Below the pieces are notes generated by a model. It had not been told where the DNA came from and did not search any database. It was given only the letters and a program-made list of their open reading frames with translations. From positions 96,001-160,000 of the IMG/VR virus record IMGVR_UViG_3300005611_001698: a DNA stretch of 64,000 nucleotides; one strand, written 5' to 3'. Position 1 is the first letter of the stretch, and every line of letters begins with the position of its first letter. Source of the stretch: a virus (lineage: Duplodnaviria; Caudoviricetes). This document shows, one piece after another, positions 18,197 to 58,550 of the stretch. The translations under genes and the position numbers were made by a program.

Positions 18197-18436
18197 CTAC
18201 CAATCTGGATATACATCTTTTATCCTAGGAACTGGGTTGTATTCTTCTTTCCTCTTCTCAGTAATTCTTTTTATTGTACAATCCTTACATTCGTAAGAAT
18301 ATGATGACGGTACAGAACCTTTGTCTTTGCGAGTTCGATAAAATTCTTCAATCAAGTTTTTTTTCTCGCCACAAACTTTACACCATCTCTCTCTGAAAAG
18401 TAAGTGTTCTAGTTGAAACTGATCTTCTAAGTCCAT
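18197..18436 (-). CDS. Small zinc-finger protein (CxxC...CxxC)
   Basis: Start revised to MDLEDQF at 18436 (TAATG overlap with the g17 stop); CKVC and CKDC motifs. Confidence 0.75.
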   Translation of the reverse strand: MDLEDQFQLEHLLFRERWCKVCGEKKNLIEEFYRTRKDKGSVPSSYSYECKDCTIKRITEKRKEEYNPVPRIKDVYPDW

Positions 18437-20082
18437 TAGAGGTAATCCCACATATAAGATCGATCTCCATATTCATCCGCAAACCATCTATCACCATCAG
18501 CATCTACGAAACTATTATCACCTAGTCCATCATCTAAGAATCCAAATGGAGCCATATCCTGCTCAATTTGATTCTTCTGCTCTTCATATAATCTCTTACG
18601 AACATCCTGATCAGTAAGTTCCTTAAAGTAATCCTGTGCTACCAACCAAGCATAAATGACAAGACACATCGCAAGGTCATCATTACATCCCTCTTCTGCT
18701 TCAAATGAGTTTCCTTTTGAAATGAAGGTAGTAAGTTCACTGATAACTTCATAATCTTTAAACAGAAGTTTGTCCGCTTCAATCATTGTTTTAAGATTGA
18801 GTGATCCAACTTTCTTAACAGTCTTGGACATTTTAATGCCAAGTTGAGTTTTCTTTCCAGAGAAACCTTGTCCAACGATTTGTCCTGCTCTTCCGCGCAT
18901 AGAGCACATCAAAAGATTTTGATATTCGAGATCATATTGAAGAATTGAAGCTACCTGATCTCCAATATCATTTACCTCGCACAATATGAATGCATTATTG
19001 TATCCCTTACAAGTTTCCCATATCACGTTTGGGAAAAGCATTGGTTTGATATCGTTCTTTCTATACTTTGCTACAAGTTTATGTGGAAATGTTGTAATGT
19101 CCACAACAACAAAAGCAGAATAATCTTCACCAACTCCTCTTGCTACGTCAACGGTACAAACATAATCATGATTTGGAATCGGATCTTCATAAACATCTAA
19201 TCCTTGATTTGATTTGATTGGTGCATCATAAATCATACTTCTTAATTTTGCTGGCGCAATCAAAGTATCAACAGATCCTAAGAACTCACACTCAAACTCA
19301 ACACGGAACTGTTGTTCACTTGTGTTCTTAATTGTCTGTTCTCGCCAAACATCATCCCTACCAGGAACTTCTGACCAGTGAACCTGAGTTGGGACATATT
19401 CATTTGCACCTCTCTCCGCATCATGCCACATGCGGTAGAAATGATTCATACCCTTAGGGGTAGATACGATAATAATCTTAGTAGACTTACCAGATGAAAT
19501 CGTAGGATAAACTGAACTGAAAAAGTCGTCAGCAATATGATTTGGCACGAACGCAAATTCGTCCAAGAACAAGATATTAAATGTCATACCACGAACGGCA
19601 GCAGCAGATGTAGATGCTGCAAGAATCTTACTGCCGTTCTCTAACTCTAAACTACCTTTGTTCCATGCCAAAATACCTTGTTGCATCCATTTAGGAAGAT
19701 TCTCATATGCTGTTTGTAATCGAGCAAGAAGATCTCTTGCGGTAGATGCTTTGTTGGCAAGAATACCAATATTCACATTGTCATTAAAAACTGCATAATG
19801 CAACAAATAAGAAACCGACGTGGTAGACTTACCAGTCTGTCGTGGCATCATGCAGATATTAAATCTATTTTCGTGGAACTTACGAATCAGTCCTTCCTGA
19901 AACGGCCACATTTTAAATGGAACAAGACCTTCATCAACGTTAACGATCTTGATATAATTCAGAGCAAAGTATACTGGATCTTCTTTACACTTGATAAACT
20001 CTTGAATCTGTTCAGCAGTAAACTCAATCTTTGTATTTGCTTTTTTTAGATTGGGATTACCTAGATATACTTCGCCTGACAT
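18436..20082 (-). CDS. g17: Terminase large subunit (gp17)
   Basis: YLGNPNLK, RQTGKS Walker A, LFLDEFAF, VDVARG and NDDL nuclease motifs. Start revised to ATG 20082. Confidence 0.98.
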   Translation of the reverse strand: MSGEVYLGNPNLKKANTKIEFTAEQIQEFIKCKEDPVYFALNYIKIVNVDEGLVPFKMWPFQEGLIRKFHENRFNICMMPRQTGKSTTSVSYLLHYAVFNDNVNIGILANKASTARDLLARLQTAYENLPKWMQQGILAWNKGSLELENGSKILAASTSAAAVRGMTFNILFLDEFAFVPNHIADDFFSSVYPTISSGKSTKIIIVSTPKGMNHFYRMWHDAERGANEYVPTQVHWSEVPGRDDVWREQTIKNTSEQQFRVEFECEFLGSVDTLIAPAKLRSMIYDAPIKSNQGLDVYEDPIPNHDYVCTVDVARGVGEDYSAFVVVDITTFPHKLVAKYRKNDIKPMLFPNVIWETCKGYNNAFILCEVNDIGDQVASILQYDLEYQNLLMCSMRGRAGQIVGQGFSGKKTQLGIKMSKTVKKVGSLNLKTMIEADKLLFKDYEVISELTTFISKGNSFEAEEGCNDDLAMCLVIYAWLVAQDYFKELTDQDVRKRLYEEQKNQIEQDMAPFGFLDDGLGDNSFVDADGDRWFADEYGDRSYMWDYL

Positions 20083-20083
20083 A

Positions 20084-20245
20084 TTAAGTCCACTTTGGAG
20101 GATTATGTGGGCACTTTGCAAAGGGGAGTTTTGTCTTTAACTCCATAAAGCAATTACAAATAGAGCACCTCTTATATTTACCCTTCAAATATTCGCACGA
20201 TTCGCAAATTTTTAATCTTTCCTCAGCAGATAATTTTTCCATCAT
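20084..20245 (-). CDS. Cys-rich microprotein (53 aa)
   Basis: Not in ORF track. MMEKLSAEERLKICESCEYLKGKYKRCSICNCFMELKTKLPFAKCPHNPPKWT has six Cys and fills the gap before g17. Confidence 0.75.
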   Translation of the reverse strand: MMEKLSAEERLKICESCEYLKGKYKRCSICNCFMELKTKLPFAKCPHNPPKWT

Positions 20246-20268
20246 GATTGTAATATAATAATTATATA

Positions 20269-20559
20269 TTAGTCTTCACTTTCTTTTTTGAACATATCAG
20301 TCATTCTTTCATGAAGAGATCCGAATCCAGTTTCTAAATCTGCCATTCTCTTTTCCCAAGTATCTCCACCATCATCACCTTTTCTTGGGTTAATGCACTG
20401 ATGATTACCTAATCTATTACAAACAAGTCCAGCAAGGTCAAGTTCGTTCCCTTTCTTACCTGTGCCCGACCAATAGTGTTGGCCGTTAATCCAAACAGCA
20501 CCGCACTTAGGACATTCTGCTCTGCTCATGGACAGATCGGACATTTCTCTGTCGTTCAT
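20269..20559 (-). CDS. Small Cys-containing hypothetical protein
   Basis: CPKCGAVWINGQHYW...LVCN...CINP, typical of cyanophage ORFs near g17. Confidence 0.75.
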   Translation of the reverse strand: MNDREMSDLSMSRAECPKCGAVWINGQHYWSGTGKKGNELDLAGLVCNRLGNHQCINPRKGDDGGDTWEKRMADLETGFGSLHERMTDMFKKESED

Positions 20560-38492: not shown

Positions 38493-40049
38493 TTAGAATT
38501 CTAAAACGATTTTAATATCTTCTTTTTGGTTTGACGATCTTAAAACAGATGGTCTATTATCTACATAGATTATCTGTCCACTTTGAGGTTTTACCTCTGG
38601 GTTTGCTACACCTTTGTCAAACGTCTGGCCTAGGAAGTAGGTCCTATTATTTAGAACGGTAGATATACCTGTAAAGGAAGTATCGATAGCAACTGTTGCT
38701 GTTCCTCCTGCAATATTGAAAGACGCGCTTAGATCACCATCTGGAAGAGTGTTTTGGAATCGCAAAAGTTTATATCCGTAAAGAGGAGCAGTTCCGACAG
38801 TAGAAGAAGTCGCAACACGATCATCTTGCCAATATTTTAAAACACCAGTATTTGAATCCCAAGATACAACTCTACCAATCGCAGTTGATCCAAATCCAAT
38901 TGTTTGTGTTATCACATCATCTGGTGTAAACTCTATTTGATCAAGTTGAGAACCAGTAACTCTTAATGCATAAACTGCGCTTGCTTTATCCGATGAAAGT
39001 TTTGTTGTAGATCCATAAACAAGAGGATCTTTTACAACTCCAATTCTTGCAAACTCATTTCCAGTGATAAAATCTGGATTAGTACTATCATTTTCAAGTC
39101 TGGAATAGACCATAACTTTACGAGCACCCAATTCAGAGTAAATATCGGAACCATGACCACCATTTGGAGGAATCACAACACTTGTTACTGCATCAGTGCT
39201 TGCATTTGAGTTAGTGATTCCAGCACCTTCCAAATCAAGAGTACCAAAAGAATATCCAGATCCACCAGAGGAAACATCTACGGATTCTATTTTCCCATCA
39301 GCATTAACTGTAACACTAGCTTTTGCACCATCACCATCTCCTAAAATATCTACATTGCTATAAGTTGTTGCAGTTCCATATCCAGTGCCTCTATTACTAA
39401 TAGTTACGATTTTAATCTGACCACTAGTTGCAGCATTATCTCTGACTGCTGCATTTGCACTTCCAGTTTTCCAATCTTCTGGAACTGGAATGAAGTTAGT
39501 TGATTCAAATCTCAAAATATCAGATGGAGTAAGAGTGTAGAGATATTTCCACACATAACCATCACCACTGCTTCCAGCAGCTCTTGGTTCCAAATCAGTG
39601 AATACCGGTTCATCGAGAGATGGCTTACCAGTTGGATTTTCTGGAGAAAATCCATTATCTAAACAAATATAAACTCTATAATCTCTATTGATTATGTAAT
39701 ATTTTGAACTATAAAGTGTAGTAGAGTTTGAGACCGGAGCAAGATTATTTCTACTATAATCATGTCTATACATATCATATTTTTCACCAGAAGCCCATAC
39801 ATATTTTTCAACAACCCTCCTTATATCGGAAGCGTTAATTTTTTTCAAAGCAATCATCGTATCCCAATAACGATTCTCTTGATTTAAAGAATCAATCGGT
39901 GCAGGTGGACTGGTATTCCAAGTTGGAGATAAGTCAGTTGCATTTGGTAGTCCAACCCAAACGTAGTATGAACTGCCAGTTGACGCAATTCCTGCACGAA
40001 AGTTTTCAGCACTAAGTATACGAAACTGATCAGTAATGATTGCGGACAT
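38493..40049 (-). CDS. g8: Baseplate wedge subunit (gp8)
   Basis: MSAIITDQFR, YDMYRHDY, DGYVWKYLY and QKEDIKIVLEF motifs. Confidence 0.95.
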   Translation of the reverse strand: MSAIITDQFRILSAENFRAGIASTGSSYYVWVGLPNATDLSPTWNTSPPAPIDSLNQENRYWDTMIALKKINASDIRRVVEKYVWASGEKYDMYRHDYSRNNLAPVSNSTTLYSSKYYIINRDYRVYICLDNGFSPENPTGKPSLDEPVFTDLEPRAAGSSGDGYVWKYLYTLTPSDILRFESTNFIPVPEDWKTGSANAAVRDNAATSGQIKIVTISNRGTGYGTATTYSNVDILGDGDGAKASVTVNADGKIESVDVSSGGSGYSFGTLDLEGAGITNSNASTDAVTSVVIPPNGGHGSDIYSELGARKVMVYSRLENDSTNPDFITGNEFARIGVVKDPLVYGSTTKLSSDKASAVYALRVTGSQLDQIEFTPDDVITQTIGFGSTAIGRVVSWDSNTGVLKYWQDDRVATSSTVGTAPLYGYKLLRFQNTLPDGDLSASFNIAGGTATVAIDTSFTGISTVLNNRTYFLGQTFDKGVANPEVKPQSGQIIYVDNRPSVLRSSNQKEDIKIVLEF

Positions 40050-56378: not shown

Positions 56379-56570
56379 TCAATATGACCCCTCTATATTG
56401 TTGAGTTCAACTTGTTCATATGAAAGATCCTCAACTTTATATTCAGTCTTCATGAGACCTACCATACCCTTTAACGTTTTCCATTTATTTGTAAAATCTT
56501 CCTGTTGAAGATTATGAAATAAACATTTATCCTTTGCGTAGATGTGAAATCTATACTCTTGAATAGTCAT
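56379..56570 (-). CDS. Small hypothetical protein
   Basis: 63-aa ORF (FHIYAKDKCL...MVGLMKT) overlapping the cupin gene. Confidence 0.7.
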   Translation of the reverse strand: MTIQEYRFHIYAKDKCLFHNLQQEDFTNKWKTLKGMVGLMKTEYKVEDLSYEQVELNNIEGSY

Positions 56571-56904
56571 CTTTTAATCGTACAATGTCATCTTCCTCGC
56601 AACGAGATCCTAATTGAACCTCTATAATAGTTATACCATTTTCACCTCCCTTTAACCTATGATGTTCCTTTACAGCAATCTTGAAATGACTATGAGGTGA
56701 TGCATGATAACAGTTATCCCCAATAGTAACATAACCATCACCCTCGACCACAGTCCAATACTCTGATCGATGATAATGGTATTGTAAACTTAATTGTTGG
56801 TCAGGATTTACAACAATCCTCTTGACCTTATACGTAGACTCCTCTAAAAGATTCTCATAATAACCCCATGGGCGCTCAAATTTCTCCGAAGATTTTTTTT
56901 CCAT
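56551..56904 (-). CDS. Mannose-6-phosphate isomerase type II cupin domain protein
   Basis: ERPWG, KVKRIVVNP, LSLQYHYHRSEYW, IEVQLG and EDDIVRLKDDY match the C-terminal cupin of ManC/AlgA. Confidence 0.9.
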   Translation of the reverse strand: MEKKSSEKFERPWGYYENLLEESTYKVKRIVVNPDQQLSLQYHYHRSEYWTVVEGDGYVTIGDNCYHASPHSHFKIAVKEHHRLKGGENGITIIEVQLGSRCEEDDIVRLKDDYSRV

Positions 56905-57090
56905 AAGTCCAACCTATGAGGCATTTTTATATACCTCAGAATTTTTTTGAGACTTCGATATTTATCTCGCTTTTTGGGTTCGTTGTAGGTTAGGGTAGTT
57001 TGCTTTTTTATATACGCCCCATCGCCGCCGCGAACGCATCAACGCCCGCCGCAATAACTGCCAATAAGTCACAGCAACTGTCCTGCACCT

Positions 57091-57120
57091 ATTCTATCAT
57101 AACCACTGTCAAACTGTCAA
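57091..57120 (-). promoter_or_regulatory. sigma70-type promoter driving a non-coding G-rich transcript
   Basis: TTGACA-18 nt-TAGAAT with extended TG. Confidence 0.7.
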
Positions 57121-57124
57121 GTGT

Positions 57125-57313
57125 TTAGTGATACGCTGCTTCCCAGAGGTTCTCTACACTTTCTGACATATCTTCCACAGTGACTGTCAAGTTCTCCCCA
57201 CCTTGAATATCAAAGACCTTGTGAAAATCAATCTGATGAACATCAAAATCCTCAAAGACTTCAAAGTCTAATGTAACACGAATCTGCTGTTTTTGTGCGT
57301 GACTGGTGTGCAT
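57125..57313 (-). CDS. Small acidic hypothetical protein
   Basis: 62-aa ORF with its own promoter (57339-57368). Confidence 0.7.
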   Translation of the reverse strand: MHTSHAQKQQIRVTLDFEVFEDFDVHQIDFHKVFDIQGGENLTVTVEDMSESVENLWEAAYH

Positions 57314-57338
57314 CAGTTCAGGAGTGATTGACCTTAGT

Positions 57339-57368
57339 ATTATATAACAACCCTCTAAGGATTGTCAA
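57339..57368 (-). promoter_or_regulatory. sigma70-type promoter
   Basis: TTGACA-18 nt-TATAAT. Confidence 0.75.
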
Positions 57369-57407
57369 GGTTTTGTGTGGGTCTGATGATGAGAATCGGG
57401 GTGGGGG

Positions 57408-57436
57408 TTGACAGAATCGTCGTGTTATGTTATGCT
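57408..57436 (+). promoter_or_regulatory. sigma70-type promoter firing into the DnaA-box repeat array
   Basis: TTGACA-17 nt-TATGCT with extended TG; no plus-strand gene downstream. Confidence 0.65.
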
Positions 57437-57474
57437 CGCTTAGATCACAAGACCTGGACACATTTCCAGAAGAA

Positions 57475-57560
57475 TAACAACAGTTTTCCACAAGTATTAG
57501 AGGGACATTAACAACAGTTTTCCACAAGTATTAGAGGGACATTAACAACAGTTTTCCACA
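57475..57560 (+). repeat. 34-bp tandem repeat (2.5 copies), each with a TTTTCCACA box
   Basis: Unit TAACAACAGTTTTCCACAAGTATTAGAGGGACAT at 57475 and 57509, partial copy at 57543. Confidence 0.95.
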
Positions 57561-57690
57561 GGATTAAACACTGCAAAGTAACTGCTTAGATACCACAAAT
57601 ACACTGCAAAGTAACTCTTTCTGTGGAATTGTGGAAAACTCTTTAACAAACTCAAATACATTTTTTAATACGTTTTTAATACATTTTTAA
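57484..57690. other. Candidate replication origin or DnaA-binding locus
   Basis: TTTTCCACA at 57484, 57518 and 57552, inverted copy at 57630-57638; ACACTGCAAAGTAACT at 57568 and 57601; AATAC(A/G)TTTTT three times at 57655-57690. Confidence 0.55.
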
Positions 57691-57691
57691 C

Positions 57692-57901
57692 TCAAAACAT
57701 GCTATTTATTGATGTTTTTGGGGTGTAATCTACGTCATTCCAATGTCTCACAGCATTAGCAACAATTGCTACATTAGTGATAAGATAGGTAGCAAAGATA
57801 ACCGTTCTGATGATTGCTACTGTATCTGCTTCCTTATCATCTTTCCCTTGTTTTTCACCCAGAGCTTTACACCATAATCTCCATACAGTTTTAATCATCA
57901 T
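57692..57901 (-). CDS. Small membrane protein
   Basis: WRLWCKALGEK, a hydrophobic segment and VRHW. Confidence 0.75.
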   Translation of the reverse strand: MMIKTVWRLWCKALGEKQGKDDKEADTVAIIRTVIFATYLITNVAIVANAVRHWNDVDYTPKTSINSMF

Positions 57902-58124
57902 GTTTCGATTCTCTTGATTTAATGTAAGTTAATTCATGCCAACAATGACGTGGGCAAACAACAAGAACATGATCTTTTTGATGTCTGATTTGATTCACAT
58001 AAACAGGACGTTTTTTGGGGTAAGTGTTAATCTCGATTGAGAGTGTATCTTGGTCAATGTAATAAACCCAACCTTGTATGTGTTTCCATGAGACAAAATC
58101 ATTGAGTTTAGGATGATACGTCAT
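57891..58124 (-). CDS. Early hypothetical protein
   Basis: 77-aa ORF overlapping both neighbours. Confidence 0.7.
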   Translation of the reverse strand: MTYHPKLNDFVSWKHIQGWVYYIDQDTLSIEINTYPKKRPVYVNQIRHQKDHVLVVCPRHCWHELTYIKSRESKHDD

Positions 58125-58407
58125 AGAGCAAACTTTCTAGGGGATTGAGTTTAATCTGCATAGAAGTGTAACATCTAGTATCAGAAATGTCAACCTTTTT
58201 TCCTACTGTTTTATGATTGATTGGGGCATGATATGTTTGAGATTTTGTATTAAAAAACCCCCAGATTGATTTGGGAGTTTTTGTTGTGTAGGAAAAGTTT
58301 TGATGATTTACGATCCAAATAGCAATGAGATTACGTTTGAATTGTGTAACCTCATAAGAATAACCTTTGGGAGGTTTGTGTGTAAAACTTGTGGGTAGTT
58401 CAATCAT
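58108..58407 (-). CDS. Early hypothetical protein
   Basis: 99-aa ORF (PPKGYSYE, SIWGF) with TGATG coupling. Confidence 0.75.
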   Translation of the reverse strand: MIELPTSFTHKPPKGYSYEVTQFKRNLIAIWIVNHQNFSYTTKTPKSIWGFFNTKSQTYHAPINHKTVGKKVDISDTRCYTSMQIKLNPLESLLYDVSS

Positions 58408-58550
58408 CAGAACTCAGTGAACTCCTCCAAATAATACTCAGCAGAGACATTGAGTTTCTGACATTCTGTCATGATAGTATCCACTTGTTCACCATTAAGT
58501 TCACAAACTTCATACAGAAAGTGAAGATCTTGTTCGATAGTTGTAATCAT
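58407..58550 (-). CDS. Acidic microprotein (47 aa)
   Basis: Manual translation MITTIEQDLHFLYEVCELNGEQVDTIMTECQKLNVSAEYYLEEFTEF; overlaps neighbours at both ends. Confidence 0.7.
   Translation of the reverse strand: MITTIEQDLHFLYEVCELNGEQVDTIMTECQKLNVSAEYYLEEFTEF

Follow-up and report, generated by a model that had tools for sequence, protein, structure and literature searches.

Host-type DnaA boxes in an origin-like non-coding module of T4-like cyanophages

Does a T4-like virus of marine cyanobacteria carry binding sites for DnaA, the host protein that starts DNA replication, and if so, what might they serve? The question arises from a 378-bp gene-free interval (57314–57691) in a 64,000-nt stretch of DNA, referred to below as the window, which covers bases 96001–160000 of the 194,408-bp IMG/VR virus record IMGVR_UViG_3300005611_001698 (39% GC). 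An earlier note, made from the sequence alone, described this interval as an oriC-like array of cyanobacterial DnaA boxes behind a promoter opposite to every gene, and proposed either a host-DnaA-assisted phage origin or a datA-like sink that titrates DnaA. The observation is confirmed, and every listed element is present. The interpretation is only partly supported. The following features were identified at the locus:

57125–57313, minus strand: gene for a 62-aa acidic early protein (phrog_12516), transcribed divergently from the module
57339–57368, minus strand: consensus sigma-70-type promoter TTGACA-18-TATAAT for the 62-aa gene (12 of 12 match), conserved in relatives
57408–57436, plus strand: outward (antisense) promoter, TTGACA (57408–57413), 17 nt, TATGCT (57431–57436), with TG before the -10 (10 of 12 match)
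57434–57451, plus strand: conserved leader GCTCGCTTAGATCACAAG (general form GCTWAGMYNACAA)
57475–57560, plus strand: 34-bp tandem repeat, 2.5 copies, 100% identical, with three direct TTTTCCACA boxes at 57484, 57518 and 57552
57568–57616, unstranded: two 16-bp repeats ACACTGCAAAGTAACT (57568–57583 and 57601–57616), 33 bp apart, each holding the palindromic AGTWACT motif
57622–57638, minus strand: tandem double box TTTTCCACA-ATTCCACA, inverted relative to the direct boxes; the perfect box (57630–57638) shares one base with a 2-mismatch box (57622–57630, TGTGGAATT)
57655–57690, unstranded: AT-rich tract of three 11-mers AATAC(A/G)TTTTT, a candidate unwinding element
57692–57901, minus strand: 69-aa gene (phrog_1679), the right flank, not part of the conserved module

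The four perfect boxes and the 2-mismatch box lie within 155 bp. The GC-content is 18% over 57640–57699. The two promoters stand back to back, forty bases apart, and no credible ORF was found downstream of the plus-strand one. The window contains 7 perfect boxes, compared to 1.69 ± 1.45 in 100 shuffles, none of which reached 7. The whole genome contains 8 perfect boxes, and the cluster described here is its only one. However, three of the four boxes come from one recent tandem duplication, so the window alone is weak evidence, and the weight rests on relatives. The statement that the promoter opposes every gene holds for the neighbourhood, but a rough ORF-strand profile shows a few short plus-strand ORF runs elsewhere in the genome. 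The site lies inside the small-early-gene region, 3.2 kb from the gp6 baseplate gene, and not exactly at an early/late junction. No tRNA was detected in the window, and an Rfam search of 56500–58500 at E up to 10 returned only chance-level hits. To the left, at 56905–57120, a minus-strand promoter TTGACA-18-TAGAAT (57120–57091, 11 of 12 match) points into about 190 nt without an ORF, where GC reaches 58%; downstream is a 117-aa cupin gene that matches the C-terminal part of mannose-6-phosphate isomerase (PF01050).

Comparison with relatives showed that the locus is one copy of a conserved module. A blastn search of the region against isolate phages aligned only the 69-aa gene, as the module is too divergent for BLAST. 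Loci found through the 62-aa protein keep the same layout upstream of that gene: AT-rich 11-mer-like repeats, an inverted box pair, further boxes at 21 bp, a strongly conserved 15-mer, the outward promoter and the gene's own promoter. The inverted pair reads TTTTCCACA-atc-TGTGGAAAA or TTATCCACA-atcgt-TGTGGAAAA. In contrast, only 2 of 80 loci found through the 69-aa gene carry box clusters, and the right neighbour varies across the family. The 15-mer leader, GCTCGCTWAGATCAC, lies immediately after the -10, is single-copy in this genome and occurs exactly in at least 120 IMG/VR stretches. A second leader-like site (window position 38723, two mismatches) lies inside a 518-aa ORF and is attributed to chance. 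The leader was not found in 61 host genomes, where three 2-mismatch hits were obtained against one control hit. A TTGACA-type -35 and a -10 stand upstream of the leader in the related elements displayed, although the filter used to select elements itself required a -35-like word.

Selection by the leader alone gave 77 non-redundant elements. The most enriched 7-mers in the 300 bp downstream were ACATTTA (52/77), TCCACAG (42/77) and TTCCACA (44/77), against 2–3% of 1597 background windows from the same contigs (p about 1e-53 to 1e-58). The box logo is T89, T78/A21, T74/A15, T-C-C-A-C-A, G57, which equals the DnaA consensus TTWTNCACA in its cyanobacterial form (PMC4674748). The commonest arrangement is two direct boxes followed by one inverted box. 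Core-to-core spacings cluster at 9–12, 20–22, 31–34 and 42–43 bp, so the sites sit on one face of the helix. The T-to-A change at box position 3 is not matched by a change in the inverted partner (TTATCCACA opposite TGTGGAAAA), so these are DNA sites and not an RNA stem.

The boxes are nevertheless optional. Of the 77 elements, 27 (35%) lack any TCCACA core and carry either palindromic AGTWACT sites with AGATAC, often 33 bp apart, or TTCTCAAT-type inverted repeats. AGTWACT pairs at 22–33 bp are commoner in box-less elements (13/27) than in box-bearing ones (7/50); the present window has both DnaA boxes and the AGTWACT pair. The constant frame consists of the promoter, the leader, an ACATTTA unit and the AT-rich repeats, and the middle is an exchangeable cassette. 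Seawater metagenome contigs show the same pattern: depth rises over the leader (57410–57460) and over the AT tract (57650–57690), because other phages in the samples share just those islands. Near-identical contigs lack one 34-bp box unit (57474–57509), which may be a k-mer assembly collapse, or one 11-bp AT unit (57673), so repeat copy number may vary in nature. The contigs of a single metatranscriptome did not cover the element, which is uninformative on its expression.

The absence of box clusters in relatives had been named as grounds for rejecting the DnaA reading, and this objection clearly fails. The generalised leader GCTWAGMYNACAA is single-copy and antisense to the genes in Syn9, S-PM2, S-RSM4, Syn19 and Syn1, and the same architecture is present in Syn33, S-SM1, S-SM2, S-SSM5 and S-ShM2. 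Leader-pattern hits in P-SSM2, S-SSM7, P-HM1 and P-HM2 are coding, lack a promoter and were discarded as chance. Two or more perfect boxes within 60 bp occur in 9 of 11 Synechococcus-isolated myoviruses sampled (Syn9, S-PM2, Syn19, Syn1, Syn33, S-SM1, S-SM2, S-SSM5 and S-ShM2), with an estimated chance expectation of under 0.01 per genome, and in those inspected the cluster lies in this module. None of the four Prochlorococcus-isolated phages sampled (P-SSM2, P-SSM4, P-HM1 and P-HM2) has such a cluster (Fisher p about 0.01, calculated by hand on a small sample without control for phylogeny), yet low-GC, Prochlorococcus-like host origins also use TTTTCCACA boxes. S-RSM4 carries TTCTCAATAA/TTATTGAGAA inverted repeats instead. 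The double box with cores 8 bp apart recurs in Syn19, S-SM1 and S-SSM5. In the Syn9/S-PM2 subtype the AT tract follows the leader directly and the conserved motif occupies the -10 position (TTGACA-17-TAAGAC), a poor -10, while in the window subtype it lies just after a good one.

Some existing annotations overlap the module. The RefSeq record of S-PM2 (NC_006820.1) places tRNA-Asn and tRNA-Leu at 19177–19333, right over the box cluster, but ARAGORN finds no tRNA in the stretch 18300–20300, so these features look misplaced. In Syn9 (NC_008296.2, 52477–52797) the annotated ORFs gp86 and gp87 lie over the boxes, AT tract and leader and are probably not genes. Beyond its module, S-PM2 has about 300 bp of dense short tandem repeats (AAGATTTCTTAAGATTT-like and GAGATTTTG-like) with no ORF (19200–19620). 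Some cyanophage-like IMG/VR contigs carry two inverted-box clusters about 1 kb apart. Other viral contigs from a scan for inverted pairs show TTATCCACA/TGTGGATAA arrays typical of non-cyanobacterial hosts; DnaA-box arrays in viral contigs are therefore not confined to cyanophages.

The divergent neighbour of the module belongs to one family of 51–74-aa acidic proteins in 64 of 68 leader-bearing, window-type elements, and it is the same for all three repeat types. The 62-aa member has no Pfam hit, no PDB fold match for its AF2 model (mean pLDDT 80) and no informative Atlas neighbour, and does not behave like a site-specific initiator. The family is confined to the window-type leader subclass: Syn9-type elements lack it within the stretches fetched (1.5 kb on each side for Syn9, S-PM2, S-RSM4, Syn19 and Syn1, and about 350 bp for the others), yet most keep boxes.

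How close is the array to the host origin? TTTTCCACA is the published cyanobacterial DnaA-box consensus, for which binding of DnaA domain IV was shown by EMSA (PMC4674748). In 22 of 23 picocyanobacterial genomes, the region up to 700 bp upstream of dnaN has boxes within one mismatch of TTTTCCACA, usually 2–6 in both orientations, clustered about 150–420 bp upstream and followed by the same flanking G. One conserved tandem pair with cores 9 bp apart, against 8 bp in the phage, is followed by CTA-CTA-CTA trios and an AT tract. The phage module is not next to dnaN or dnaA, and shows no homology to these origins beyond 11-nt box matches, so capture of host oriC was rejected. DnaA-trios, expected as three or more within 0–16 bp of a box (PMC8287927), are absent: no ([CT]T[AT]) run of 3 or more and no (NTN) run of 4 or more follows any box on either strand. 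Under the same strict pattern, trios were found in 1/54 box-bearing relatives and 9/23 host origins. The AT tract lies 16 bp from the nearest box, which is inverted relative to the host arrangement; the three direct boxes point toward the tract but lie 95–170 bp away. No gene for DnaA or DnaA domain IV was found in the phage, so if the boxes are read by DnaA, it is the host's. The term oriC-like thus overstates the case. Cumulative GC skew is monotonic because nearly all genes are on one strand, and cannot test the origin idea. Away from dnaN, four of five complete picocyanobacterial genomes have an inverted pair of perfect boxes exactly 44 bp apart at one locus, and a second multi-box locus is seen in all five (for example, 1657268–1657578 in the genome labelled G025); these may be dnaA-promoter or datA-like sites.

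The frame is closer to T4 origins. In T4 oriF (uvsY) and oriG (gene 34), a promoter sends a transcript into a downstream unwinding element, where the transcript stays annealed and primes synthesis, and there is no phage initiator of the Rep/DnaA kind (Kreuzer and Brister 2010, PMC3016281). The present virus belongs to the same superfamily as T4. The same review of T4 initiation never mentions DnaA, in line with the earlier note's statement that T4 replication does not use it. The present module has, at the sequence level, a promoter whose predicted transcript is not needed for a downstream gene, and AT-rich repeats downstream of it, the most conserved feature of the family. However, the T4 promoters are MotA-dependent middle promoters, whereas the one described here is a host sigma-70-type early promoter, and T4 has several origins and no DnaA boxes. 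The T4 oriF element lies about 50 bp downstream of its promoter; here the tract lies about 220 nt away with repeat arrays in between, and the distance varies from 20 to 220 nt between subtypes, the tract following the leader directly in S-PM2, Syn1 and S-RSM4. T4 oriE combines an early-mode promoter needing no phage factor, evenly spaced 12-nt iterons of unknown binder and unproven role, and repEA/repEB nearby (PMC3016281). The present locus likewise has an early-mode promoter, evenly spaced repeats (34, 33 and 11 bp) and small early genes beside it, but its repeats match the host initiator's site.

We therefore read the module as a candidate replication origin of the T4 type, with host DnaA sites as an exchangeable accessory, at a probability of roughly 0.45. 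In this model, a host-type early promoter fires against the direction of the surrounding genes and produces a non-coding transcript that starts at the conserved leader, runs through a phased array of protein-binding repeats and enters the easily melted tract, where it could form an R-loop that primes DNA synthesis. In this phage and in about two thirds of relatives the repeats are host-type DnaA boxes, where host DnaA would probably dock as an accessory; it could help melting, stall or modulate the transcript, or tie phage initiation to the host's replication state. The analysis itself establishes the anatomy, its conservation and single-copy status, the box enrichment, the DnaA-like logo, the helical phasing, the lack of compensatory change and the match to host oriC boxes, while DnaA binding and DNA opening, transcription, R-loop formation and origin activity are inferred only. 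As boxes are dispensable across the family, DnaA cannot be the core of the module.

Other readings are each considered unlikely. A sink, in which multiplying phage genomes soak up DnaA or promote its inactivation and so stop host initiation or rewire DnaA-controlled host genes, fits the box count: one phage genome carries 4 perfect boxes here against 15–25 in a whole host chromosome, and replicated phage DNA would be expected soon to outnumber host sites. The optional nature of the boxes would also suit an accessory host-manipulation trait. E. coli datA, likewise a cluster of high-affinity boxes away from the chromosomal origin, acts with IHF by stimulating DnaA-ATP hydrolysis and has no promoter, leader or AT-repeat frame; of the traits of such a sink, only the box cluster itself is seen here. 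The sink does not explain why the boxes always sit inside a module with a conserved promoter, leader and AT tract, their phasing, or their replacement by other repeats at the same place; moreover, T4-like cyanophages degrade host DNA, which would make blocking host initiation of little value. A transcription switch, in which DnaA or another box-binding protein regulates the back-to-back promoters driving the antisense RNA and/or the 62-aa gene, is marginally less improbable. The boxes lie 50–230 bp downstream of the plus promoter and within 300 bp of the minus promoter, there is tight linkage to one small early gene family, and host DnaA modulates the transcription needed to activate ori-lambda without being the phage's initiator (Wegrzyn et al. 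1995, as cited in PMC8477408), although lambda has its own initiator (O protein) and iterons, which are not found here. This model gives the AT-rich repeats no role, and Syn9-type elements keep boxes without the linked gene.

About equally unlikely is that the boxes are iterons for a phage-encoded protein that happens to share the DnaA-box sequence. The alternative repeats (AGTWACT/AGATAC and TTCTCAATAA) in the same slot behave like iterons that co-vary with an initiator, but the logo matches the DnaA consensus position by position, including W at position 3 and the G after the box, no DnaA-domain-IV-like gene is in the phage, and the conserved neighbour does not co-vary with the repeats as the initiator of an iteron replicon (P1 oriR, plasmids) would. 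A functional non-coding RNA, with the boxes as RNA elements or passengers, is less likely still. It is favoured by the conserved promoter and first 15–18 transcribed bases, a strong hairpin terminator 230–280 nt downstream in many relatives and an RNA fold z-score of -2.3, but disfavoured by the uncompensated boxes, the wholesale replacement of the middle section, the absence of Rfam matches, the lack of a leader counterpart in 61 host genomes and the variable downstream gene, which means that antisense control of it is not conserved. A functionless chance 9-mer amplified by tandem duplication accounts for three of the four boxes but is refuted by the independent arrays, with different flanks and spacings, at the same place in dozens of relatives.

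The replication origins of the ocean's abundant T4-like cyanophages have never been mapped; for Syn9 only a single origin has been predicted (Weigele 2007), with no location given in the review consulted (PMC2984593). Literature searches found no paper linking cyanophages with DnaA boxes in the library searched. Origins of phages or plasmids that use host DnaA are known, as are T4-type promoter and unwinding-element origins; what is new is their combination in a T4-like lytic phage with exchangeable site cassettes. Many related viruses keep one copy of the module, which makes it the best, though unproven, candidate for their replication start, at about 52.6 kb in Syn9, 19.3 kb in S-PM2, 50.7 kb in Syn19 and 58.7 kb in Syn1. 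A bolder reading, unlikely on present evidence, is that a lytic T4-like lineage recruits the host initiator to a dedicated single origin and that replication start is licensed by different host or phage factors in different lineages, according to the cassette carried (DnaA boxes, AGTWACT or TTCTCAATAA sites); this may track host genus. If host DnaA binds, this would be, to our knowledge, the first case of a T4-like lytic phage engaging the host initiator. It would link phage DNA synthesis to the host cell cycle or nutrient state, since DnaA-ATP reports growth status, which matters for infection dynamics in light- and nutrient-limited oceans.
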